From Eledone cirrhosa (Eukaryota), in NCBI GenBank assembly GCA_964016885.1, contig OZ024749.1:4836001-4900000 (forward strand): a DNA stretch of 64,000 nt, in the 5' to 3' direction. The notes under the pieces are model-generated. The model had not been told where the DNA came from and did not search any database. It worked only from the letters and a program-made list of their open reading frames with translations. Of this stretch, positions 1,003-52,966 are shown piece by piece (position 1 is the first letter of the stretch; every line of letters begins with the position of its first letter). The position numbers and the translations under genes were made by a program.

Positions 1003-3018
1003 TCATCATCATCGTTTAACGTCCATCTTCCACGCTTGCATGGATTTGGACGGGAGTTTTCCCACTTGAGGCAGGAGTGGTTGCCTTGCTCGCATAGGAC
1101 TGTCTGGCGGGTTTTCTACGGCTGGATGCCCTTCCTAACACCAACCACGTTTACAGTGTGGACTGGGAGGTTTTTACCGTGTTACCTACACGGCCACATT
1201 ACAGCGTGGACTGTGTGTTTTTTTGTCGTGACACCTACACGACCTCATTTGTTTCGGACTGGATGTTGTGGTACCAACATAACTTTAAATTGAAAGGGGT
1301 GGTGTGGATGGGGTTGGGGTAGTGGGACGGGCGTGTATTTTTGTTAGAGGTGCCTACTGACTGTAGTAGGTTTCACTTTGTACTTAGGTAAGGCGGGTCT
1401 TCTGTATTACTGTGTAACGCCAAAGATCTCGGTCCTGTGACATTGTCTTGGAGAGGTGTAAGTGTGTGAGGTCGTAATTTATAAAGTCGTCCCAGGTTTT
1501 TTCTGGGTCTGCCTACTCCGTGGCTACAGTCTATTTTTATTACCCTGCACATTTTTATACAGCTGTTGTCTTTCATGCGCACCACGTGACCATACCAACG
1601 TAGTCTTCTCTCGAGTAAACAACATCTGATCCCTCTTATTTCTAATTTTTCCCTTAGTTCGTTTATGCTTTGCCGTTCACGTATATTACTATTATACATC
1701 CAGCGGAGCATGCAAGCTTCGTTCCTCTCCAGTCTGCGTATATCCTCTGCACACAATGCCAGGTCTCACTGCCATGTAACATTGCTGTTCGTATGCGGGC
1801 ATCATACAGCCTGCCTTTCATTTTTAGAGAGAACCCTTTAGCGGCTAATAGTGGTATAAACTCTCTGAACTTTTTACATCCCAGTTCTGACTCTAGCTAC
1901 TGTACTTTTAGAAGACCCTCCACCACTGCTGATTTTGTCACCCAAGTAACGGAAGGTGTCCACTATTTCTATAGAACCATCTGTGCAATGGAATGAGCTA
2001 GTATTCTGTGGGCACTTGCTGCTACTTATTGCACCAGAGCACCGGCCACATAAAATCTATGTTCTTAGTTAGCTTACCTGTGATCCAACTACATCTTTTA
2101 TGCACCCATACTTTGCATTTGGGACATAAAATGGAGTTTCTACCTACTCCTTTCCTACACACTGAGCATGGCCATTTCCCGGATGGGACCGGTGCCCTAT
2201 TTTCCTTCCTACAAACTAGAACTTTAGTCTTAGACAGGTTAATTTTAAGGCCTTTTGAATCTAGGCCATACTTCCATGTTTGGAATTTCTTCTCTAGTTC
2301 AGCCATTGATTCAGCTATGAGCGTTAGATCATCTGCGTATAGGAGTTCCCATAGGCAGCCGGTCTTGAACTCCACTGTTATAGCCTGAAGGGCAATAATA
2401 AATAGTAGGGGGCTAAGAACGGAGCCCTGATGAACACCAACATTTACGCTAAACTCTTCACTATATTCGTTGTTAATTCTAACCTTGCTGACTGTTTCTT
2501 TATACATGGCTTTTACGAGTATAGCTCTCACAAGCCATTCATCAACACCTAGTTTTCTAAGAGCCCACCAGATAATGGAACGGGGGACTCTGTCGAAGGC
2601 TTTCTCCAAGTCGACAAAAGCTAAGTATAGTGGTTTACTTTTAGCTAGGTACTTCTCCTGTAGTTGTGGTACAATGAAAAGAGCGTATGTGGTACTTTTA
2701 CCTGACACAAACCCGAACTGCATTTCATCTAGATCAATTCGCTCCCTGATTAGTTGCGCTATTACTTTTTCCATGATCTTCATGACCTGGTCGATTAATT
2801 TAATGCCTCTATAGTTACTCCTATCTAGGGCATCTCCTTAACAGTTAATGATGTAGCAGTTAATGATGATGCTGCTACGCCAGTCCTTCGGACCAACCCC
2901 ATTCTGTATGACATGGTTTACTAATCAGGTGATCATGGTGTGTCCCACCGTTCCAGAAGCTTTCAGCATTTCAGCAACTATTTCCGAAGGCCCAGCCGCC
3001 TTGCCCGTCTTCATATCT
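1003..3018 (-). mobile_element. 5'-truncated RTE-clade LINE, frameshifted
   Basis: RT motifs QFGF, FVDLEKAFDRVP, GVHQGSVLSPLLF, LLYADDL (ORF 2022-2783) and RTE C-terminus RRLRWYGHVVRM..GRPRK (ORF 1373-1756). The 3' UTR ends in a (GAT)n tail at about 1003. Confidence 0.92.
2022..2783 (-). pseudogene. RTE reverse transcriptase fragment with an embedded PHD-like Cys/His finger
   Basis: RT motifs followed by WPCSVCRKGVGRNSILCPKCKVWVHKRC. The frame breaks near 2050. Confidence 0.88.
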
Positions 3019-5580: not shown

Positions 5581-5584
5581 TATA

Positions 5585-6385
5585 GTTTTAATATAGATGA
5601 GATTCTATAGGACTAGAACTGTTTCATTTTTTGAGAAATCATCAGGAATCTGGGTATCAAAAGATAAATATGGTATTTATAGGCCTCTTCAGGTGGTAGG
5701 AGTGGGATGGATAGAGGTCATTGGTTGAAAGAAAAGGGAATTCATTAAATGCTAATTCTTTAAAGCTATAATTTATATTTAGAGTAACAAAGGCAGAAAG
5801 AATTCTATAAACAAGTTCAGAATGGGGTGCTAATCCTTATTTTTAAGTTTCTCTTAAGCTAACAATGCCTAGATTTCAGGTGTCTATAAGATCATTGGGG
5901 GTCAGTCATGTTTGATGGATTTAAAGAAAAAGGAAATTAGCTTTTAAAGAATTTCCCTATTGTTTAAATCCATCAACCATGACTGACCCCCAATGAACTC
6001 TATAGACACCTGAAATCTAGCATTGTTAGCTTAAGTGAAACTTAAAAATAAGGAGTGGCACCCCATTATGAACTTGTTAATAGAATTCTTTTTGCCTTTG
6101 TTACTCTAAATATAAATTATAGCTTAAAAGAATTAGCATTTAATGAATTCCCTTTTCTTTCAACCAATGACCTACACCCATCCCACTCCATACCCTCTCC
6201 TAGCACCTGAAGAGACCTATAAATAGCATATTTATTTTTTGATACCCAGATTCCTGATGATTTCTAAAGAATGAAACAGTTCTAGTCCTGTAGAATATCA
6301 TCTATATTAAAACATTTATACTCTGCTATGTATTGAGTACCTTACTTACTGTGGTTACCTCCGATTCTACTCGGAATAACGTATA

Positions 6386-6387
<2 letters not shown>
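5585..6387. mobile_element. Penelope-type pseudo-LTR in head-to-head inverted duplication
   Basis: Arms at about 5585-5944 and 5946-6313 are reverse complements, each with a hammerhead. CCAAT (about 6164) and TATAAATA (about 6218) lie upstream of the plus-strand ribozyme. Flanked by (TA)n. Confidence 0.82.
6249..6296 (+). ncRNA. Type I hammerhead ribozyme motif (mirror copy on minus strand 5601-5650)
   Basis: gattc-CTGATGA-t.ttc/taaa/gaa.t-GAAA-cag..ctg-TA-gaat. Confidence 0.7.
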
Positions 6388-6432
<45 letters not shown>

Positions 6433-6528: not shown

Positions 6529-8880
6529 ATACCAATACCTTCTAAGGATGACTTCTTACTCCTTATGATACAGAAAACTAACCAATTTATCAGAAGAGTT
6601 AGATGGAGGGCCTACCACTTCGATACAAAATCTAAATATGCAGATAAGAAATATATGTATGATTTCAATACTTACAAGAATCCACCACACAACTCTCTAC
6701 TTGAAGACTTTGAGAAAGACCTTTTTAATTTAATTAAACACCTCAAATTTAAGAAGTATAAATCTGTCTTTCAAAAGGACCTTGATTCTACCCTATTGGA
6801 CCTAAAAAAGTCTAAAAAAATCCATGTCCACTCGGACAAAACTGGAAACTTGTATCACATGGATATTGAAGATTATAATGAGTTCATATATAAAGAACTC
6901 AGGAAAAATTATAAAGAATCTAATAATGCGTCACTCACCAACATCAACAACAAAACACACAACATAGTAAAAAAACTAAACATTGAAGATAGAACTGAAC
7001 CTTTGGCATTGAAAAGACCACACTTCAACCTGAAGGATCATAAATCAAACTTTAACTCAAATCCTTCTATAAGACTTATATGTCCCTCCAAATCTGATAT
7101 TGGAATAATTAGCAAAAACATTTTGGATAGAGTCATCCCACAAATAAGAAAACACGTTAATTTACCACTCTGGGAAAACACTTCCCAGGTAATTAACTGG
7201 TTTAAAAATATTAGATGTAAATCTTCTGCTTCTTTTCTACAATTTGATATAGATAATTACTATTCTTCTATATCACCTATACTCCTGAACAAAGCTTTAA
7301 TATTTGCTAAAAATAGTTCTAACTTAACTTTGGATGACATTAATATTATTACACATGCTAGACTAACACTTATTGAATTTCAGAATGAATACTGGACCAG
7401 AAACACATATAGTAATCTATTTGATATCACTATGGGTTCAAGCGATTCCGCCCAAATTACTGATCTTGTGGGCCTCTTTCTCCTTTTCAAAATAAATGCT
7501 TCCTTTCCCCACCTTAAAGGTGGTTTATATCGTGATGACTGTCTTCTTCTTTCCAACAACCTTAGCCTTTCAGAAATAGAAAAAAACAAAAAGCTTATTA
7601 GAACTTTCCTTAAAGACTATTATAGTCTTCATATTACTTTTGAAAACACAAGTAAAGTAGTAAATTTCCTAGCTATAACTTTAGACTTAGCTACGGGTAT
7701 CTACCAACCTTACCATAAACCCAACCAAAACTTACACTACATACACTCACAATCTAATCACACTAAATATATCCTTAAAAACCTTGCATATAATATATCA
7801 CTTAGAATTTCTAACCTTTCGTCTAACCAAGATGTATTTGATAAAAATGCGTCCTTCTATAACGAAGCTCTAGATAGAAGTGGCCACAAAAATAGATTAG
7901 AATATAAACCTTCTACTAAAAATACTATAAACATACAACCTAATATTACCAACAAACACCAAATGAAAAGTACACACCTAAATGCCACCCACACTATACC
8001 CCAAAATACCAACAACTCCTCTAATATAAAGTATAGTAACTCTCAAAAAACTACTCATCATACAACTCTAATAAATGTTAATAATAAAACTCCTAATAAA
8101 CAAGATAAAACACCTAAATCTATAAATCTAACTAAAAATGTGCGTGGTGAGATCATTAACATTAATCCCCCTAGTAAACATCACGATACAACCTATAAAA
8201 ATAATAAACAACATAGAAACCGTAATAGACGAGTTACTTGGTATAATGCTCCATTTAATTTACAAATTAAGGATAATATTGCTAAAAAATGTTTTTATAT
8301 CCTAGAGAAAAACTTCCCGCCAAACCACAAATACCATCAAATCTTAAATAGGTCAACAGTTAAATTCTCATACTCAACAACCAAAAACATAAAACAAAAT
8401 ATAAGTGCCTATAATGCATATAAATGTAAGAATACCATACGTATACCACCAATACATCAAACTAACCATAATATCTCCTCAAATACAGAATTAACGAAAG
8501 GTTGTAACTGTAGAAACAAAGCAAACTGCCCATTAAAAGGAAATTGTCTTGTTAACAACATAGTTTATAAATGTAATGTTAAAACTAAAGATTCTATTTG
8601 CTCATATATAGGAGCTACTTCTAACAATTTTAAGGTAAGGTTTAATACCCACAAACATAGTTTTAAAAATGCCGCACTAGCTAATACAACATCTCTAGCA
8701 GAAAAAATCAATAGTTATAAAAATAAGAATATAGAATATGATATGACCTGGAGTGTGCTCAAAAGAGCCACCCCTTATCAAAATAATAGAAATGAATGTA
8801 GATTATGTTCCCAAGAACTATTTGAAATAATGAAATCTAAGGATATCCTATTAAATAAGCGACAGGAATTAATTATATCG

Positions 8881-8910
<30 letters not shown>
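6523..8910 (+). CDS. Penelope-like element polyprotein (RT + C-terminal GIY-YIG endonuclease), Naiad-type; N-terminus abuts microsatellite
   Basis: Uninterrupted ORF with [33 protein letters not shown] and YHKPN..YIH motifs. Endonuclease region [52 protein letters not shown]. The ORF-track start at 6421 lies in (TA)n. Confidence 0.9.
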
Positions 8911-17668: not shown

Positions 17669-17710
17669 TAGCCAACAATGTTTCATCCTATTAAGGACTC
17701 ATCAGGGCAA
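17669..17710 (-). ncRNA. Minimal type I hammerhead ribozyme motif
   Basis: Minus strand: gcc-CTGATGA-gtcct/taat/aggat-GAAA-cattg-TT-ggc. Lies in an island of about 230 bp between (TA)n tracts. Confidence 0.72.
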
Positions 17711-18004: not shown

Positions 18005-19238
18005 ATGTATATATATATATATATGTGTATGTATATATATATATATATATATATGGGTATGTATATATATATATATATGTATATGTATATATATATATGT
18101 GTATGTATATATATATATATATGTTTATGTATATATATATATATATGTGTATGTATATATATATATGTGTATGTATATATATATATATATATGTGTATGT
18201 ATATATATATATGTGTATGTATATATATATATGTGTATGTATATATATATATATATGTGTATGTATATATATATATATGTGTATGTATATATATATATAT
18301 ATATGTGTATGTATATATATATATATGTGTATGTATATATATATGTGTATGTATATATATATATATATGTGTATATATATATATGTGTATATATATATAT
18401 ATATGTGTATATATATATATATATGTGTATATATATATGTATATATATATATATGTGTATATATATATGTATATATATATATATGTGTATATATATATGT
18501 ATATATATATGTGTATATATACGTGGGAAAGTGAAAAATCGGAGAATAGACCGTTAAAACATGTTTATTGAAAATATCACCTACGTACGTTTCGCCCAGT
18601 TGGGCTTCTCAAGGGCATAAACAGTCACAAGTGTTCCTTATATAGTTTGGAAAGAGATTTGGGGGTTAAATCGACATCAAGATTCATTGTTCGCAAAAAT
18701 ATCTTGTTTTGATTTTTCAGCAGGTCAAGGGAGGTAACTTTGGCCGGTGTTAGGGCAGTCTTTCCCGGATAATTTTTGGTATGCAGGGATCGTTTTTTGG
18801 GTGTTATTTTGCTGCGCCTGCCCGCCGGGGTGTTAAGACTTGTTGCAGGGAGATCCAGTGTGTTATTTCACTCTCCATTCTTAACCCATCTAAAGAAGGA
18901 TATTTTTAAGCGATGTGTACAACTTATCGCTGTTTCAGCTCTGCTGTTGATGAGCTCGTGGGGTGCAGTTATGATGTGGTAGAGCTCCATGAGGCAAAGA
19001 TCGCATTTCCTCTTGAAGTTGTACGGTGCAGCCCTGTCGACAATCTCCCAGTGCGTGGAGAAGCTAATGTTTAAGTCCTTTAGTGATGTGATGTAGTCCG
19101 CGAGCGAGGTGGAGTGCCTTAGTTTTCTATTTGTGAAAGAGTGGAGATGTGTTCGAAACCTAATTTTGAACGGGCCGGAGGTGGCCCCTATCTAATGTTG
19201 GCAACGGCATCCGCAGACGCAACCAGAATGACCGCGAA

Positions 19239-19832
19239 GTGACTGGGGAACATGCAAAACATGGCGTGCGGAATGACAATCGCACCATCCCGCGTGCTGT
19301 GGGTTGTAATTCTGCTAACGACAGCTGCGGTAGCGCAGCTAACAACGTAGGCAGCAATAATGATAGCCTTATCGTGGGAAATAGACGGAACAGCGACAGA
19401 AATTGCAACTGCCGCGACAGAGGACGGTGCCCCCTTAGAGGATACTGCTTGACCGATAGGGTTATATATAGATGCACTATTACTAGCCACAATAGCGTTA
19501 AACATTATATAGGGGCCACCTCCGGCCCGTTCAAAATTAGGTTTCGAACACATCTCCACTCTTTCACAAATAGAAAACTAAGGCACTCCACCTCGCTCGC
19601 GGACTACATCACATCACTAAAGGACTTAAACATTAGCTTCTCCACGCACTAGGAGATTGTCGACAGGGCTGCACCGTACAACTTCAAGAGGAAATGCAAT
19701 CTTTGCCTCATGGAGCTCTACCACATCATAACTGCACCCCACGAGCTCATCAACAGCAGAGCTGAAACAGCGATAAGTTGTACACATCGCTTAAAAATAT
19801 CCTTCTTTAGATGGGTTAAGAATGGAGAGTGA
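19239..19832 (+). pseudogene. PLE GIY-YIG endonuclease fragment (one nonsense codon at 19650-19652)
   Basis: Homologous to the C-terminus of ORF 6523-8910. The inverted copy has TGG where this copy has TAG, and the frame continues ..CNLCLMELYHII..SCTH. Confidence 0.85.
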
Positions 19833-20080
19833 AATAACACACTGGATCTCCCTGCAACAAGTCTTAACACCCCAGCTGGCAGGCGCAGCAAAATAACACC
19901 CAAAAAACGATCCCTGCATACCAAAAATTATCCGGGAAAGACTGCCCTGACACCGGCCAAAGTTACCTCCCTTGACCTGCTGAAAAATCAAAACAAGATA
20001 TTTTTGCGAACAATGAATCTTGATGTCGATTTAACCCCCAAATCTCTTTCCAAACTATATAAGGAACACTTGTGACTGTT

Positions 20081-20125
20081 TATGCCTTTGAGAAGCCCAA
20101 CTGGGCGAAACGTACGTAGGTGATA
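20081..20125 (+). ncRNA. Variant hammerhead-like motif in PLE 3' region (mirror at 18575-18619, minus)
   Basis: tgcc-(C/T)TTGAGAA-gccc/aact/gggc-GAAA-cgtacg-TA-ggtg, about 20 nt downstream of TATATAA. The core deviates from CUGANGA. Confidence 0.55.
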
Positions 20126-20687
20126 TTTTCAATAAACATGTTTTAACGGTCTATTCTCCGATTTTTCACTTTCCCACGTGCTTACGCTCTGCTAACTCTC
20201 TAGCCCACTAAATATTAACACTTCGAATATTTAATACTGCCGGCACTAGTATCGAGCACCTTTGGCATACGCTACTTGGCAAATAACTATATGTATCACC
20301 TATCCCTCCTTTTTTTCTCTCTTTCTCGATACGTAAATACTATATGTGTATATATATATGTGTATATATATGTGTATATATATATGTGTATATATATGTG
20401 TATATATATATATATGTGTATATATATGTGTATATATATATATATATATGTGTATATATATATATGTGTGTATATATATATATGTGTGTATATATATATA
20501 TATGTGTATATATATATATGTGTATATATATATATGTGTATATAATATATATATACATGTGTATATATATATATATATATGTGTGTATATATATATATAT
20601 ATGTGTATATGTGTATATATATATATGTGTATATATATATATGTGTATGTGTGTATATATATGTGTATGTGTGTATATATATATATA

Positions 20688-42152: not shown

Positions 42153-42188
<36 letters not shown>

Positions 42189-42200
42189 GCATGCATATAT

Positions 42201-42355
<155 letters not shown>

Positions 42356-42383
42356 ATGTATATATATATATATATATATACAT

Positions 42384-42447
<64 letters not shown>

Positions 42448-42462
42448 TATATATATATACAT

Positions 42463-42500
<38 letters not shown>

Positions 42501-42553
42501 ATATATATATATATATATATACAATATATATATATATATATATACATATACAT

Positions 42554-42591
<38 letters not shown>

Positions 42592-42597
42592 CATACA

Positions 42598-42673
<76 letters not shown>

Positions 42674-42679
42674 CATACA

Positions 42680-42710
<31 letters not shown>

Positions 42711-43002
42711 AAAACAAATAACGAAACGAAATTAAATTTCGTTTCATTTGTAACTCACTTTTGTATGACTGACGCTTAAACAATTAAGTTAAAGATGTAC
42801 ATCCACATATGTATACTGAAATACTAGTATGCATATGAATACACACACGTATACATATGTAGATGTACCGAGTTTTTCACTGGTCACTTTACTGTGAGTG
42901 TCCAGCTATTCTGTATGTAAACACACAGACAAACCGGTTTTTAGAGTCATACTGGTTTTTGAGGAAACACCTTTCCTCTATTCTCCAGAAAGCCAGGCAA
43001 GG

Positions 43003-43047
43003 AATATTGAACTAGTTTCGATGTTGTTACATCTCATCAGCAATATT
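43003..43047 (-). ncRNA. Type I hammerhead ribozyme (also 43469-43513, 43935-43979, 44401-44445 on minus)
   Basis: aatattg-CTGATGA-gatgt/aaca/acatc-GAAA-ctag-TT-caatatt. Perfect core, 7-bp stem I, 5-bp stem II, palindromic stem III. Confidence 0.9.
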
Positions 43048-44548
43048 TACCTATCTTCCGGCCTCTCTAGAGAATCGTAAAAGCACATATCGTTATATGC
43101 TTTTTCTATGAAAATTAGTAGTGGGCAGACTAATTTGCATAGAGCGTGAGTACGTACCGGTTCAACGGAGACGATAAAAACAAATAACGAAACGAAATTA
43201 AATTTCGTTTCATTTGTAACTCACTTTTGTATGACTGACGCTTAAACAATTAAGTTAAAGATGTACATCCACATATGTATACTGAAATACTAGTATGCAT
43301 ATGAATACACACACGTATACATATGTAGATGTACCGAGTTTTTCACTGGTCACTTTACTGTGAGTGTCCAGCTATTCTGTATGTAAACACACAGACAAAC
43401 CGGTTTTTAGAGTCATACTGGTTTTTGAGGAAACACCTTTCCTCTATTCTCCAGAAAGCCAGGCAAGGAATATTGAACTAGTTTCGATGTTGTTACATCT
43501 CATCAGCAATATTTACCTATCTTCCGGCCTCTCTAGAGAATCGTAAAAGCACATATCGTTATATGCTTTTTCTATGAAAATTAGTAGTGGGCAGACTAAT
43601 TTGCATAGAGCGTGAGTACGTACCGGTTCAACGGAGACGATAAAAACAAATAACGAAACGAAATTAAATTTCGTTTCATTTGTAACTCACTTTTGTATGA
43701 CTGACGCTTAAACAATTAAGTTAAAGATGTACATCCACATATGTATACTGAAATACTAGTATGCATATGAATACACACACGTATACATATGTAGATGTAC
43801 CGAGTTTTTCACTGGTCACTTTACTGTGAGTGTCCAGCTATTCTGTATGTAAACACACAGACAAACCGGTTTTTAGAGTCATACTGGTTTTTGAGGAAAC
43901 ACCTTTCCTCTATTCTCCAGAAAGCCAGGCAAGGAATATTGAACTAGTTTCGATGTTGTTACATCTCATCAGCAATATTTACCTATCTTCCGGCCTCTCT
44001 AGAGAATCGTAAAAGCACATATCGTTATATGCTTTTTCTATGAAAATTAGTAGTGGGCAGACTAATTTGCATAGAGCGTGAGTACGTACCGGTTCAACGG
44101 AGACGATAAAAACAAATAACGAAACGAAATTAAATTTCGTTTCATTTGTAACTCACTTTTGTATGACTGACGCTTAAACAATTAAGTTAAAGATGTACAT
44201 CCACATATGTATACTGAAATACTAGTATGCATATGAATACACACACGTATACATATGTAGATGTACCGAGTTTTTCACTGGTCACTTTACTGTGAGTGTC
44301 CAGCTATTCTGTATGTAAACACACAGACAAACCGGTTTTTAGAGTCATACTGGTTTTTGAGGAAACACCTTTCCTCTATTCTCCAGAAAGCCAGGCAAGG
44401 AATATTGAACTAGTTTCGATGTTGTTACATCTCATCAGCAATATTTACCTATCTTCCGGCCTCTCTAGAGAATCGTAAAAGCACATATCGTTATATGCTT
44501 TTTCTATGAAAATTAGTACGATTCTCTAGAGAGGCCGGAAGATAGGTA

Positions 44549-44593
44549 AATATTGCTGATGAGATGTAACAACATCGAAACTAGTTCAATATT
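44549..44593 (+). ncRNA. Type I hammerhead ribozyme (also 45015-45059, 45481-45525, 45947-45991 on plus)
   Basis: Same motif. Predicted cleavage after GUU at 44586. Confidence 0.9.
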
Positions 44594-46212
44594 CCTTGCC
44601 TGGCTTTCTGGAGAATAGAGGAAAGGTGTTTCCTCAAAAACCAGTATGACTCTAAAAACCGGTTTGTCTGTGTGTTTACATACAGAATAGCTGGACACTC
44701 ACAGTAAAGTGACCAGTGAAAAACTCGGTACATCTACATATGTATACGTGTGTGTATTCATATGCATACTAGTATTTCAGTATACATATGTGGATGTACA
44801 TCTTTAACTTAATTGTTTAAGCGTCAGTCATACAAAAGTGAGTTACAAATGAAACGAAATTTAATTTCGTTTCGTTATTTGTTTTTATCGTCTCCGTTGA
44901 ACCGGTACGTACTCACGCTCTATGCAAATTAGTCTGCCCACTACTAATTTTCATAGAAAAAGCATATAACGATATGTGCTTTTACGATTCTCTAGAGAGG
45001 CCGGAAGATAGGTAAATATTGCTGATGAGATGTAACAACATCGAAACTAGTTCAATATTCCTTGCCTGGCTTTCTGGAGAATAGAGGAAAGGTGTTTCCT
45101 CAAAAACCAGTATGACTCTAAAAACCGGTTTGTCTGTGTGTTTACATACAGAATAGCTGGACACTCACAGTAAAGTGACCAGTGAAAAACTCGGTACATC
45201 TACATATGTATACGTGTGTGTATTCATATGCATACTAGTATTTCAGTATACATATGTGGATGTACATCTTTAACTTAATTGTTTAAGCGTCAGTCATACA
45301 AAAGTGAGTTACAAATGAAACGAAATTTAATTTCGTTTCGTTATTTGTTTTTATCGTCTCCGTTGAACCGGTACGTACTCACGCTCTATGCAAATTAGTC
45401 TGCCCACTACTAATTTTCATAGAAAAAGCATATAACGATATGTGCTTTTACGATTCTCTAGAGAGGCCGGAAGATAGGTAAATATTGCTGATGAGATGTA
45501 ACAACATCGAAACTAGTTCAATATTCCTTGCCTGGCTTTCTGGAGAATAGAGGAAAGGTGTTTCCTCAAAAACCAGTATGACTCTAAAAACCGGTTTGTC
45601 TGTGTGTTTACATACAGAATAGCTGGACACTCACAGTAAAGTGACCAGTGAAAAACTCGGTACATCTACATATGTATACGTGTGTGTATTCATATGCATA
45701 CTAGTATTTCAGTATACATATGTGGATGTACATCTTTAACTTAATTGTTTAAGCGTCAGTCATACAAAAGTGAGTTACAAATGAAACGAAATTTAATTTC
45801 GTTTCGTTATTTGTTTTTATCGTCTCCGTTGAACCGGTACGTACTCACGCTCTATGCAAATTAGTCTGCCCACTACTAATTTTCATAGAAAAAGCATATA
45901 ACGATATGTGCTTTTACGATTCTCTAGAGAGGCCGGAAGATAGGTAAATATTGCTGATGAGATGTAACAACATCGAAACTAGTTCAATATTCCTTGCCTG
46001 GCTTTCTGGAGAATAGAGGAAAGGTGTTTCCTCAAAAACCAGTATGACTCTAAAAACCGGTTTGTCTGTGTGTTTACATACAGAATAGCTGGACACTCAC
46101 AGTAAAGTGACCAGTGAAAAACTCGGTACATCTACATATGTATACGTGTGTGTATTCATATGCATACTAGTATTTCAGTATACATATGTGGATGTACATC
46201 TTTAACTTAATT

Positions 46213-47115
<903 letters not shown>

Positions 47116-47709: not shown

Positions 47710-50700
47710 CTATAGTCTGATGTAGAGTGAAGGCCCATTCACACGGGCCATTCTCGCCACTTTCACCCATCTTTCATAGAAAGGGCTGGGGTGCAGCACC
47801 TCTCTCTCCATCCTGATCCTTCTTCCGAAATGATATCGGAAGAAACGGACCAGTTGTTGGCCAGAGAGAAAGGTGCCTGACCTCAGTCCTTTCAGACGCG
47901 TCCACCATACAACCTCTTTCGCCATGGCTATTACGCACAGAAACACCGCCTCTGCTTCATCTTTGAAGGGGGGAGGCGGCTTGATCATTACAATAGACTC
48001 GGTGGTCAACCGGATCGGTTCCACCCTTGACAGCAGTTGTTCGACATAGCCCCACAGATCGGCTACGCCCGAGCAGTGTACCAATGCGTGTGCAACGGTT
48101 TCCTCGTCGCACACGCATCTGGGACAGATCTTTTTGGCGGGGTCCCTACCCGGGCGCCCGTGTCTGTAGAGCCTTTCTCGAACGGGTAAAGCCCCTCGGT
48201 AGCACTGCCAGGCCAGGGACTTCTGGAAGTTGTCCATAGGTCCCGGGCTGAATGTCCTACCGAACAGGCTGGCCAGTTCGTCCTCCTCCATGTCTAGGGC
48301 TTCTCCGAGGGCGTCGTCGCACCTGCTGCGTACCAGCCCTCTATAGAATGTTGCGGTGGAGTCTCCACTGATAACCGGATCCGCCTGCCAGAGGGCGGTG
48401 AGCGCCTGGGCACACTCAGTGTGCCAGGCGCCCAGTTTTCTCGGTCTTTGCTTGACCCAGGATTGCAGCTCGGTGAGTGAGACGAGTCTGGGAAAGGTTC
48501 GCCTCACAAACGAGGCCCACACCGGTTGTCCGGTGAGGAATACGTAGAGGTGCCGTAGCCTTAATGCGTGTTTACGCATCATTAGCCACGGCATCCCCAG
48601 CCCTCCTTTCGAAGGGTGTTGACAGCAGATGGATCTCCTCACCATAGGAGCCCGCCTCTTCCAAAGGAATTGGAAGAGCGCGCGCTCCATCTTGGTGAGG
48701 GTTTCCCTTGGGCAGGGCACTACGGTCAGGCGGTAGTAGATGACGGACGCTATGTAGGTGTTCGCCACCTCCGCCCGACCTTTCAGGGATAGTTTGCAAC
48801 TGGCCCACTTCTGGGTCAGTGCAAACACCCTGTTCGTAACCTCCGTCCAGTTTTTCTCCACCTGGAGGTCCGGTCCGAACCAGACCCCGAGCAACTTCAC
48901 CGGGCCCTCCGTCCAGCGTCCGACGACGCCATCGGAGGGCATCGGTCTGCCCCTCCACGTGCCGAGTTGCAAACCGATCGACTTGTCCCGGTTCAGCTTA
49001 GCCCCTGTGAACTTTTCGTACTCCTCCAGTAAGGTGCCGACCGCCTCGATTTCGGAGGCCGTCGACACCATTACTGTCACGTCATCGGCGTAGGCCGACA
49101 CCGCTTTCCGCAATCCCGGTTCCAAAGGGATGCCCTGCAACAACTCCAACTTCCGCAGTAGTGGCTCGAGAGTCAACACATACAGAAGGGAGGAGAGAGG
49201 GCACCCCTGTCGGATGGACCGCGCGATTTTGAACGGCTCCGAGAGGTAGCCGTTCACCTTGACCCTAGAGCAGATGCGGCTGCTGTGCATAGCAGTGATC
49301 CAGCCCCTGAAAACGGGTCCGAAGCCTGCCGCCGCTAGCACCGCATCCAGGTAACCATGGTCGACCCTATCGAACGCCTTAGATTGATCCAAGTTGATCA
49401 GAGCCCCACCAAAGCCGGGTTCGTTCCCAACCCTCTCTATGATGTATCGCATGAGGTGGAGGTTGTCATGGATGGACCTGGACGGGATAGCGCATGTCTG
49501 CGCATCTCCCACCAGGTTGCCCACGACAAGCGCCAACCTCTTTGCTAGCACCTTGGCCAAAATCTGTAACTCTGTATTTAGCAGAGTTATGGGCCTGAAG
49601 TTACTTATTTCGTCCCCCTTGTTCTCGTCCTTCCTCACTAGCGTGACTACGCCCTTGGTCACAGTACAGGGAATTCTCCCATTCTGTTGCCAATTGCAGT
49701 AGACCGCCTCGAGGAGATCGGGGAACAAGTCCGGCATAGCTAGATATAATTCGTAAGGAAGACCATCGAGACCCGGGGATTTGCGTTTGCCGCATTGGCT
49801 CAGCACGTCCTCTATCTCAGCGGCCGAAATCGGCTCCTCGCAGGACTTCGCCTCCCTGTCGGAGAGGCGCGGCAGGCCGTCGAGGTATGGACCGAAGTCC
49901 ACGTTCCCAACCGGCTCCCCGCCCCTCCCGAACAGTCGGGCAAAGTGCCTTTGAAATGCCTCACACATCTGCTTAGGCTCAAGAATCGCCCGTCCATCCA
50001 GGTCTCGCAAAGACCGGATGGTGGATTTAGTTCCACTGTTGGCCTCTGTCACGCGGGCCCAGCTAACAGCTTTGGTCCCCTCGTTCCCTAGAGCACGTAT
50101 TTTACTTCGGACAACGCAGCCTTCGTGCTTCGCGTCGAAAAACTGGCTCAAAGCCGTTCTCGACGCTAGCACTCTGGCCACGTCGCCGCTTCTAATTGCC
50201 TCTTCTACTCTATCTATTAGCTCCCTTTCCTTCCTATTCCTATCCGCAGCTAGAACCTTACTAAATTCTATCGAGACTACTCTAATCTCTCTCTTTAGAG
50301 ATACCCACCACCTGCTGTTGACGATCGCTCCAGTCAACCGTTCCTTAACTAACGTACTAATCCGATTCCTGTAGGCTCTACTTGCCGGCAAGGACAAGTT
50401 GAGCTTCCAGTAACCGGGGCCCTGTCTATGAGTTCTGTCAAGGTTGACCATGCAGGTCACTAATTTGTGGTCTGAATAGCCAACCATGCGCATTTTTGGA
50501 CAACTTAAAAAGTCCTTATCCTTAATTCTAACTAAGAACCTATCTAGGTACGACCTAGATGATCCGCTACGATTTGCCCAAGTCCAGGTTGGCGCAGTCG
50601 GAAAATCTAGTCGATATCTATCGGCCAGGTCAAATCGACCGATTAGCCCTTTGAGGCTATTACACCCCTCTCTATCGGGGCAGGCCCCTACGTAGTCCCA

Positions 50701-51147
50701 GCGTGCATCTAGGATACCATTCCAGTCCCCCACTAATAGCAAGGAGCGGGACGTCCCCAGAAAAGTCTCCAGACGATGGAAGAAGTCCGGCCGCATTGAC
50801 CCGAAAGGGCCGTAGGCGGCTACCAACCTAAACGCTCCGCCTTTACCACTGCCAAGGTCCAGAACCACTAGTCGACCCTCCGGGTCCAAATGTACCATCT
50901 GTGTTGCGAGACCCAGATGTTTTTGCAGCAGAACGACAACTCCACCCCCACCTCCGGGCTGACAGAGAGATGCGTGCATCTCAAAGTCATCAAAGGTGGG
51001 GGCCAGCTGTCGCACGTTGCTGATCCGGGCCTCGCAAATAACCATCACATCTATACGTTGTGACCTGAGGTCATTTAGAAGCATTGCTTGCTTCCAAGTT
51101 GAGCCCAGGCCACGCGCATTTAAACAGCCTACTCTTAGCATAGCCAT
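47710..51147 (-). CDS. L1/Tx1 ORF2: APE endonuclease + reverse transcriptase + C-terminal Zn-binding domain
   Basis: LNARGL, GDWN, LDRFL, SDH (APE); GPGYWKLN, KSPGLDGLP, FRPITLLN, DQSKAFDRV, RQGCPLS, YADDV (RT); CPRC..ETVAHALVHC. No stops. First ATG at 51147. Confidence 0.95.
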   Translation of the reverse strand: MAMLRVGCLNARGLGSTWKQAMLLNDLRSQRIDVMVICEARISNVRQLAPTFDDFEMHASLCQPGGGGGVVVLLQKHLGLATQMVHLDPEGRLVVLDLGSGKGGAFRLVAAYGPFGSMRPDFFHRLETFLGTSRSLLLVGDWNGILDARWDYVGACPDREGCNSLKGLIGRFDLADRYRLDFPTAPTWTWANRSGSSRSYLDRFLVRIKDKDFLSCPKMRMVGYSDHKLVTCMVNLDRTHRQGPGYWKLNLSLPASRAYRNRISTLVKERLTGAIVNSRWWVSLKREIRVVSIEFSKVLAADRNRKERELIDRVEEAIRSGDVARVLASRTALSQFFDAKHEGCVVRSKIRALGNEGTKAVSWARVTEANSGTKSTIRSLRDLDGRAILEPKQMCEAFQRHFARLFGRGGEPVGNVDFGPYLDGLPRLSDREAKSCEEPISAAEIEDVLSQCGKRKSPGLDGLPYELYLAMPDLFPDLLEAVYCNWQQNGRIPCTVTKGVVTLVRKDENKGDEISNFRPITLLNTELQILAKVLAKRLALVVGNLVGDAQTCAIPSRSIHDNLHLMRYIIERVGNEPGFGGALINLDQSKAFDRVDHGYLDAVLAAAGFGPVFRGWITAMHSSRICSRVKVNGYLSEPFKIARSIRQGCPLSSLLYVLTLEPLLRKLELLQGIPLEPGLRKAVSAYADDVTVMVSTASEIEAVGTLLEEYEKFTGAKLNRDKSIGLQLGTWRGRPMPSDGVVGRWTEGPVKLLGVWFGPDLQVEKNWTEVTNRVFALTQKWASCKLSLKGRAEVANTYIASVIYYRLTVVPCPRETLTKMERALFQFLWKRRAPMVRRSICCQHPSKGGLGMPWLMMRKHALRLRHLYVFLTGQPVWASFVRRTFPRLVSLTELQSWVKQRPRKLGAWHTECAQALTALWQADPVISGDSTATFYRGLVRSRCDDALGEALDMEEDELASLFGRTFSPGPMDNFQKSLAWQCYRGALPVRERLYRHGRPGRDPAKKICPRCVCDEETVAHALVHCSGVADLWGYVEQLLSRVEPIRLTTESIVMIKPPPPFKDEAEAVFLCVIAMAKEVVWWTRLKGLRSGTFLSGQQLVRFFRYHFGRRIRMEREVLHPSPFYERWVKVARMARVNGPSLYIRL

Positions 51148-51171
51148 GTTGGTGGTGAAGAGAAAAGGCAC

Positions 51172-52966
51172 TTACCTCTCTGCGTCCCGGGTATCGGGCT
51201 GCACAATTTCCATTAGGGTGGGGGATGGGTTGTTGGGTGGGGTGGTGGTTTGTGGAAGTGTGGGGGCATCAGTGTGTTGTGTGGTTGGGGAGCTTGGAGT
51301 TGTGTGGGTGTTTGGGGAGGGGGTGGGATAGTTTTTTAGGAGGACGCGGTTAATGGGCCCGACGCAGGGGGGACCCACGTCCTCTTTAAAATTGTTTTTT
51401 AAAGTTTTATAGGTGTCCTGTGGGGCCTTAATCATTTTGAGGTGGGGGAAATCCCCTGCCTGGGTGAAGTTAGGCCCTTGTGTTTTTATTAGATTGTTGT
51501 TGTACACAATGTTTAACAGTTTTTTGTTTCTTGTATTTATGTATGTGTATGCATGTTTTTGTTTTTGTGTGGTGTTTTTTGTTTGCTGTTGTGAGCTCTT
51601 TTGTGTTGGTGTCAGTGTTATGTTTTGGGGAGAGGTTTTTTTCATTTGTGTGTCTGAGGTGTGTTTTCTTTTTTTTCTTTTGATTGTGTGGAAGTGCTCC
51701 TCCTCGTCTGACGACGAACTAGGGTCATCTTCCGCGTTGGAGGGGAGGGGTATATTTTCGGGTTGTGTTTGCGGTACGGGTGTTTTGGAAATTGTTTTTG
51801 TTTTTTGAGTGGAGGGGATGGGTTGGACATTGTTTTGTTTTGGTTTGAGCTGTGGTGGTTGTTTTTGTAGTGGTAGTTGTGGTGATTGTGTTGGTTGTGC
51901 AGTTGTTGGTGGTGTAGGCAGGATTGGGGTTTTCTTATTAAGTTGGGGACAGACAGCCCTCAGGTGACCTCTGGTTCCGCAGAGGTAACACGAGGGCCGT
52001 CTACCCTCAACGGTAATGTTGATGAAGGTTAGATCATCCAGTATGACGCGTTCAGGGATCTGGGCGATCCTTTCGGGCCTCATTTGAACTACAAGTTCGA
52101 GGCTCGTTCCACTGAACGCGTCACCCGATGCCTTTCCCATGGACACCAGCATGTCATCCTCCAGGTCCAGAAAACCTGTCAAAACCCACCATATGTCCAT
52201 AATCGGCAGGATGGTGTGGATTTTTATTTTTTGTGTTCTTCTACCCATGTACGTAGGGTAGAAGGTGTATGCGGTGGATGTGATTGGTTTGATGGACAGT
52301 TTCACTGCTGTGTCCCTGTCCTTCATGAGAATGGATAGACTCCCGTAGAGTCTATCCTTCTGAATGAAGGTGATGTCCTTCATGACGTCTTTTAAAACCA
52401 GCTCTATCTCGCTCTGTGATGGTTGAGCTGGTTTTTTACTTTTGTTCGAGATTGTCCTAAACATGACCGTGTTTAGGAGTCTCTGGCTTTTTAGTTCCGG
52501 GGGTGGAATGGATTGTGAATGAACCATTTTCCCCGTACACTATATATTTTTTCGCATCCGCCAGTAGCTCCTTCGCTTTTGTTATATCTACTGGCAGATA
52601 GTCGAGGGTTTTCCTTGTCGTCTCGGCGAAGGAGAAATTTTGTTTGTTTGTGTTGTTGTTGTTGTCGTTGGTGGTGTTGTTGTTATCATTGTTGTTGTTG
52701 TCACCGTTATTGGTCTTGTTGTTGTTGTTATTGTTATTGTTATTGGTGTTGTTTTCGTCCGTCGCATTGTTGTTGTTGTTGCTGTTGCTGCTGATTCTTT
52801 GGGTTGTTGCCATGGCAACGTCAAGTTGTCGGTTAACAGGTGAAGAGAATTCTTCCTCTGGCTGACCTTTCTTCTTGACCTCTGCTACTGTGACAGTGGC
52901 AGGGGGAAGCTGTAAGTTCATCTTCCCCTTTCCTCCTTCGAATTTTGGTGAAGAAGCTTCGGCCAT
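51172..52966 (-). CDS. L1/Tx1 ORF1 (gag-like, CCHC zinc knuckle), split into two overlapping frames near 52457-52530
   Basis: ORF 52457-52966 (Asn-rich) overlaps ORF 51172-52527, which contains CYLCGTRGHLRAVC and a basic NLS-like KRKKRK. Confidence 0.8.

Follow-up and report, generated by a model that had tools for sequence, protein, structure and literature searches.

In L1 twin priming, both strands of the target prime on one RNA and the outcome is an inverted joint with microhomology; the second priming site is variable, and the cDNAs span adjacent parts of one linear RNA. Penelope-like elements (PLEs) carry a tail that, in the available text of PMC8557442, is attributed to endonuclease resolution within a cycle called unresolved. 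Anole Poseidon PAc, as described in the available part of PMC11167929, cuts and extends both strands in vitro from two internal RNA sites; uncut linear RNA is its dominant substrate, the start sites are alike for both strands, and priming shows no homology. For metazoan non-LTR retrozymes, the accessible portions of PMC7229834 and bioRxiv 10.64898/2026.07.22.740005 propose that circular RNA is the RT template and that PLEs are the mobilisers, and PMC7229834, again as far as its available text goes, proposes circle-templated tandem cDNA and names editing as a possible cause of circle heterogeneity.

The 64,000-nt stretch of the Eledone cirrhosa genome analysed here (hereafter the window) contains a 466-nt unit arranged as a pair of inverted arrays, the arms, which are 100% identical. 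Unit positions are numbered from the first base after the predicted hammerhead cut. The left arm (42708..44518, minus strand; 1811 bp, 3.89 units) has its inner start at unit position 356 and its outer end at a site designated B (302), and the right arm (44517..46212, plus strand; 1696 bp, 3.64 units) has its inner start at 397 and its outer end at site A (228). The inner starts lie 111 nt (left) and 70 nt (right) upstream of the cut site, and the outer ends, unit 302 versus 228, are 74 nt apart and both enter (TA)n. A 2-nt TA microhomology (44517..44518) would be the meeting point of two cDNA 3' ends, and the 39-bp spacer of the palindrome (44478..44516) lies within the left arm at unit positions 358-396. 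The left end alone bears a 74-nt "tail" (unit 229-302; 42708..42781, minus strand), located between the two putative priming sites. A long hairpin is predicted immediately 5' of site A (unit 142-213; 44728..44799, plus strand), recurring in each unit, and another immediately 5' of site B (unit 262-290; 44848..44876, plus strand). The junctions, the starts about 110 and 70 nt upstream, the TA overlap, the 39-bp spacer and the end offset of about 75 nt given by the first-pass annotation all hold. The target microsatellites are (TA)n-rich on the left (42156..42707) and on the right (46213..47080), and any target duplication is hidden in (TA)n. The 7.5 units in total contain zero internal variants, and the locus is a real, young non-LTR retrozyme insertion. 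As a separate observation, interrupted microsatellite units of 12-30 nt are reiterated beside the ends in the flanks of the window array (42350-42710) and of loci L031, L061 and L205; in L031 they occur on both sides, as if a target duplication had been repeated.

A hammerhead core is present in every unit, eight of eight in the window and four per arm. The Type I hammerhead at 44538..44609 (plus strand; core 44556-44586, predicted cut after 44586) matches Rfam HH9 at E=1.6e-6, below the gathering score, and at the gathering threshold Rfam gave 0 matches within the window. Further right-arm cores start at 45022, 45488 and 45954 (plus strand); the left-arm core at 44408..44438 (minus strand) is repeated at 43972-43942, 43506-43476 and 43040-43010. 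The predicted cuts follow GUU, after 44586, 45052, 45518 and 45984 on the plus strand and 44408, 43942, 43476 and 43010 on the minus strand. Among the 16 commonest variants (103 locus haplotypes) the cut triplet is GUU or GUC; in a sister family, described below, it is GUA. A compensatory A-U/U-A change in helix II supports the putative ribozyme call, which draws on the core, this compensation, the cut triplets and the sub-threshold HH9 match. Co-folding predicts that helix III pairs between two unit copies, and self-cleavage would probably involve a dimer held together by the palindromic helix III. The unit is about 36% GC, lacks an LTR, and has no ORF of at least 120 aa in either arm. Short, non-coding, tandem and low in GC, with a type I hammerhead in each unit and a dispersed multi-locus family, it belongs to a non-LTR retrozyme that occupies about 2,000 loci of the Eledone cirrhosa genome.

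This family was counted across 3.0 Gb in 1796 contigs. There are 967 exact hammerhead cores and 1959 exact matches to the B end followed by (TA)n; neither count is due to chance, since the reversed-pattern controls gave 0 for both. Matches to the A end number 2100 and are partly redundant. Set 1 consists of the window plus 29 loci, picked by unit identity among the matches listed (150 of 243), with 40 of 189 candidates scored and the selection blind to ends; set 2 comprises 59 B-end-anchored stretches, nearly all in order along one contig (C1); and set 3 comprises 40 stretches out of 127 B-end matches without a following T. One duplicate (L092, of L091) was left out, and 12 nt were trimmed off the arm ends ahead of variant counts. 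Set 1 yielded 25 head-to-head pairs and six single arms, with flanks that are mostly (TA)n, and arrays of 17-60+ units occur in the genome. A sister retrozyme family, about 67% identical, has a 419-nt unit in L041 (8500-9240) and occurs also in L057, L175, L178 and L211; its helix II differs, its palindromic helix III is shared, and its end lies at the homologous B site. The site-B hairpin sequence is partly retained there, and the sister end likewise falls about 15 nt beyond the hairpin. Public runs labelled as 16 other organisms (X4-X20) contain 20-66% of the unit's words, and in two of the public-run contig sets the greater part of the unit is represented, with the cut junction crossed at low depth. 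At 5584-6390 the window holds another inverted pair with a hammerhead, also set in (TA)n, the left end of which is short and the right about 75 nt longer, as judged by eye; it repeats the short/long arrangement of the main arrays.

The outer ends of the family are confined to two sites, A at unit position about 228-234 and B at about 301-302, at one or other of which 52 of 56 set-1 arm ends lie. Of the 25 set-1 pairs, 21 combine A with B, none is A+A or B+B, and four have one off-site end; such agreement among 21 classed pairs has a chance probability of about 5e-7. Consistently, the B-anchored sets contribute 34 A+B pairs out of 34 classed in set 2 (0 B+B; four off-site, two cut by the fetch edge) and 21 out of 21 in set 3 (two off-site). 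All 76 classed pairs thus carry one A and one B end, and the 12 unclassed pairs of 88 comprise ten with an off-site end and two cut by the fetch edge. By eye, seven apparent single arms (L061, L063, L065, L083, L107, L114 and L040) have an inverted A stub of 5-20 nt. The combination of one A with one B end is the Penelope-like signature of a tail at one end, here in the form of a strict pairing rule. The first-pass annotation had envisaged priming "independently at AT-rich sites", a view that the fixed sites (52/56) and the uniform pairing (76/76) do not support. Its expectation that a circular template gives permuted ends is borne out by the inner ends, which are near uniform, and fails for the outer ends, where permutation is ruled out by the fixed A and B termini (52/56). 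It had further taken a fixed terminus to speak against a circle; the outer ends do have one, and the circle is not thereby refuted, because Penelope RT starts at fixed internal sites according to the available text of PMC11167929.

Outside pure (TA)n, a direct repeat of 12-14 bp surrounds the whole two-armed structure at 15 of 18 sites, and a stagger of 11-12 nt fits all 15 duplications once overlap with the element ends is removed; the three other sites have a repeat of 17, a repeat of 9, and none. A second copy of the expected duplication was not found in seven of 14 re-checked set-3 loci. Among 76 joints examined, 56 are insertion-free and 20 have apparent insertions; microhomology of at least 2 nt occurs in 34 of the 56, as against a null of 17.7% (p 9e-13). 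The strand read inward from either flank is antisense to the RNA, which is the expectation for two target-primed cDNAs. The duplications (15/18) and the joint microhomology (34/56) support the earlier proposal that both target strands were primed and their cDNAs joined head-to-head. The inner ends approach uniformity (KS p 0.67; 94 arms of at least one unit), with an excess at unit positions 1-30 (18/152 versus 9.8, p 0.009) in an interval chosen post hoc, and arm lengths within a locus are weakly correlated (rho 0.29, 55 loci, p 0.03). Classical L1-type adjacency, in which one arm starts where the other primed, fits L033, L037 and L056/57 but is contradicted by the near-uniform inner ends. 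We hold twin priming at two fixed sites to be very probable.

Our main reading, to which we assign a probability of roughly 0.6, is that a hammerhead retrozyme was inserted as inverted tandem arrays by a borrowed Penelope-like RT/endonuclease, probably from a circular 466-nt RNA. A multimer transcript would self-cleave, and the monomer would be ligated to a circle. Both (TA)n strands would then be cut in a staggered manner, leaving 3' overhangs of about 11-12 nt that would give rise to the observed duplications. One 3' end would prime at site B (about 301) and the other at site A (about 225-234), with 1-5 nt of pairing, as suggested by the fixed ends and the one-of-each rule. Each RT may lap the RNA a variable number of times, for which the variable inner ends and lengths are the visible counterpart of the presumed rolling. 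Finally, the cDNA 3' ends would anneal through the microhomology seen at the joints and copy each other to make the second strands.

The form of the template can be approached through alleles. The two arms of a locus share a haplotype: in 33 of 36 loci no arm from elsewhere is closer than the partner arm, which speaks for one template for both, and 46 loci carry 38 haplotypes. Five locus-fixed alleles were searched for genome-wide. The allele 118G>T has 16 occurrences, all in L036 (7+9 units, 16/16 covering units); 18C>T has nine, all in L050 (9/9); and an A>G pair has four, all in L058 (4/4), so that each of these three single-locus alleles is present in all covering units of both arms. The other two are subfamily markers in long arrays, with 69 and 285 matches, which means that homogeneous linear sources exist; uniqueness within the sample, considered as proof of allele uniqueness, failed genome-wide for these two of five. 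A parent source of the single-locus alleles could sit on the unassembled haplotype. L199 was considered as a parent of L197, and their haplotypes differ.

The locus-fixed changes, defined as fixed within a locus and absent from the six nearest loci, are also skewed in type. Among 77 such changes in 130 insertions, A>G outnumbers T>C by 25 to 7, whereas among 305 single-unit changes the numbers are 29 and 31 (Fisher p 0.007 versus 25:7). In set 3 alone the ratio is 10:1, and the bias persists with 4 or 10 neighbours. The 5' neighbours of the 25 fixed A>G changes are U 12, A 8, C 5 and G 0, consistent with the 5'-neighbour preference of ADAR. The fixed bias thus resembles RNA editing, with polarity drawn from nearest-neighbour loci and an RT or transcription error bias as a possible source. 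For an edit made on one RNA unit to turn up in every unit of the two arms, that unit must have been copied repeatedly. As a separate matter, the sense-strand single-unit changes of sets 1 and 2 include G>A 48 times and C>T 28 times out of 286, which may reflect cDNA-strand damage or error.

Since 441 of 442 cut junctions are without an indel within 5 nt, a covalent circle is favoured over end-to-end jumps, and a monomer circle would, on this genomic record, probably be the usual template. A cleaved linear monomer copied once, which the first-pass annotation had held unable to template the arms, is excluded. Its proposal of a circular (or uncleaved multimeric) template finds the circle favoured across the family, with no private allele at the window locus; its use of the out-of-phase ends as a rolling-circle sign is correct in the phases given, but phase alone fits an uncut multimer too. 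Because the window haplotype is identical to those of L031, L032 and L033, the window locus alone cannot separate circle from multimer, and its template form is inferred from the family-wide evidence.

The same A/B twin priming could have operated on a linear multimer, the transcript of an array already in the genome, left uncut or cut only in part, with both primers beginning in one unit and reading upstream. Arrays of 17-60+ units are available as sources, the identical arm of L031, at 5.4 units, is long enough to have been the source of the 3.9 and 3.6 units in the window, and the inner-end excess falls directly past the cut site. Uncut RNA is moreover the in vitro substrate in the available text of PMC11167929. 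The terminal units of L045, L088 and L097 share alleles missing from inner units, which fits a multimer or later conversion, while a monomer circle needs conversion. Against a multimer, the single-locus alleles occupy all 16, 9 and 4 copies across both arms, and edits on a multimer are expected to be patchy among units, yet are fixed. Furthermore, 38 haplotypes occur in 46 loci, and old heterogeneous arrays predict heterogeneous daughters, yet 11 of 44 loci are without an internal variant. We judge this explanation unlikely; a multimer route likely applies to a minority of insertions. Multimeric circles were considered for the periodic variants in long arrays, but these variants follow no regular pattern, for the most part keep to one arm and are therefore read as later crossover.

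That twin-primed insertions of about one unit per arm were expanded afterwards in DNA, by unequal crossover or slippage, is a route proposed in the available text of bioRxiv 10.64898/2026.07.22.740005. Older arrays (L043, L051, L054, L056/57 and L120/64) do show irregular higher-order patterns, and 14 of 29 older loci have variants common to a subset of units. Larger arrays, however, are not the more diverged internally (rho -0.11 across 44 loci). Loci of 16-20 units carry 0-2 internal variants, and both observations argue that arrays are born long. The 11 loci without an internal variant include ones of 16 and 20 units, and the window has none in 7.5. DNA-level expansion accounts for later remodelling of old arrays, not for array birth, and as an explanation of the latter is quite improbable.

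[quoted passage not shown] Template jumps are usually imprecise, as known from R2 work, whereas 441 of 442 junctions here are free of indels within 5 nt, and inter-molecule jumps would mix haplotypes, whereas the arms are mostly homogeneous; such copying is very improbable. Finally, a fold-back artefact of assembly or library is a scarcely credible source of the palindrome. The 100% identity of the arms might suggest one, and contigs from three short-read runs, uninformative for a high-copy repeat, did not span the joint, nor did short-read contigs show the ends; but the arms differ in fixed ends and flanks, and 76 loci have distinct joints with a common end rule and target duplications.

The main reading, insertion by a borrowed Penelope-like enzyme, calls for a partner, as the retrozyme element has no ORF with RT and GIY-YIG endonuclease. 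Its 3' ends, which are fixed, internal and set apart by the tail, its inverted 5'-truncated partner and its AT-rich or microsatellite target are of PLE type; the retrozyme behaves PLE-like in insertion but is non-autonomous. A Neptune-like PLE family of this genome has a C-terminal GIY-YIG domain and an upstream CxxxxCxxC motif, as given for Neptune and Nematis in the available text of PMC8557442. In this family 12 of 12 inverted pairs join a short end to an end with a tail of about 40 nt (20 loci; two of the 12 are near-duplicates). In L078 (508-4250) a retrozyme B arm is fused to the Neptune-like short end, in agreement with the end rule; in L103 (508-3510) a retrozyme B arm is fused to the tailed end, which breaks it. 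Because the Neptune-like PLE obeys the same end rule, and given the L078 fusion, it is likely that the retrozyme is mobilised by a PLE. Both fusions involve the 3' part of the Neptune-like PLE and may reflect a two-RNA template switch or later deletions.

Comparison of the unit with the Neptune-like elements in 20 loci found no shared sequence, two matches being sister-retrozyme copies. Across the loci compared, no terminal sequence is common to the unit and either the Neptune-like family or a PLE-like ORF at 6529-8910, and none of the elements compared is an autonomous one with sequence in common with the unit. The Neptune-like protein, searched against the PDB, returned nothing significant. 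The frame at window 6529-8910 is open, PLE-like with RT and GIY-YIG-type regions, 793 aa long and without a Pfam match; it has 144 scored genome matches at 95-100% identity, and it may belong to clade Hydra. Elsewhere in the window are inverted PLE endonuclease-region remnants in (TA)n-rich repeats, with one end shorter by eye (18520-20340), a separate hammerhead core on the minus strand (17674-17705), a LINE with endonuclease and RT of 1153 aa and an upstream 455-aa frame (47710-52539, minus strand), and a separate RT fragment (2022-2837, minus strand).

A more general scheme can be put forward tentatively, at a little under even odds: PLE twin priming would be obligatory and asymmetric, with retrozyme circles as rolling templates and A-to-I edited circles becoming germ-line arrays. 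Its priming component, held just as tentatively, would consist of a staggered cut of both strands, a single fixed start site on the RNA for each of them, and mutual second-strand priming. If true, one priming rule explains why PLEs have inverted copies and a tail on one side, and how hammerhead satellites are born; edited circles then enter the germ line as arrays that reach up to tens of units, a possible way for RNA editing to shape heritable satellite sequence. That retrozyme circles are reverse-transcribed into tandem DNA was proposed earlier, and the single-unit-bottleneck alleles described here, many of which look like RNA edits, bear on that point. How PLEs come by their inverted copies and tails is a question that PMC8557442 leaves open, and the present family offers a countable record of it.

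The words "inverted" and "target site" have 0 matches in the available text of PMC7229834, and that of bioRxiv 10.64898/2026.07.22.740005 contains nothing relevant; head-to-head arms, paired fixed ends, target duplications and allele evidence are absent from both as available. Among open-access papers searched by title and abstract opening, none describes the pairing rule or the allele evidence.

Set against the described systems, the family resembles metazoan non-LTR retrozymes, as the available parts of PMC7229834 and bioRxiv 10.64898/2026.07.22.740005 present them, in its non-coding tandem organisation, its type I hammerhead per unit, a GC content below 45% and the lack of an LTR. Its 466-nt unit slightly exceeds the 150-450 bp quoted for metazoan retrozymes in the available text of PMC7229834, and the evidence for it is genomic; the retrozyme papers, as far as available, have RNA or cleavage data. 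With PLEs, as covered by the available text of PMC8557442, it shares an inverted partner, a one-end tail, (TA)n targeting and terminal-repeat hammerheads; it differs in having no ORF, multi-unit arms and a tail of 70-74 nt rather than 30-40 bp. The strict rule of one short and one long end, with a stagger of 11-12 nt, likewise contrasts with the PLEs of that text, in which the tail is often one-sided. With Poseidon PAc, on the available text of PMC11167929, it would share the cutting and extension of both strands and two internal starts spaced by the tail, and it has in common AT-rich targets and a predicted dimer. Unlike Poseidon PAc, the retrozyme uses one site per strand with a 1-5 nt overlap, and its alleles indicate a monomer. 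Unlike L1 twin priming, both sites are fixed and both arms repeat the same unit several times. The non-LTR retrozyme class and the circle model are thus already known; what appears to be new is the strict asymmetric twin-priming signature, together with genomic evidence that one RNA unit, in many cases an edited one, was the template.
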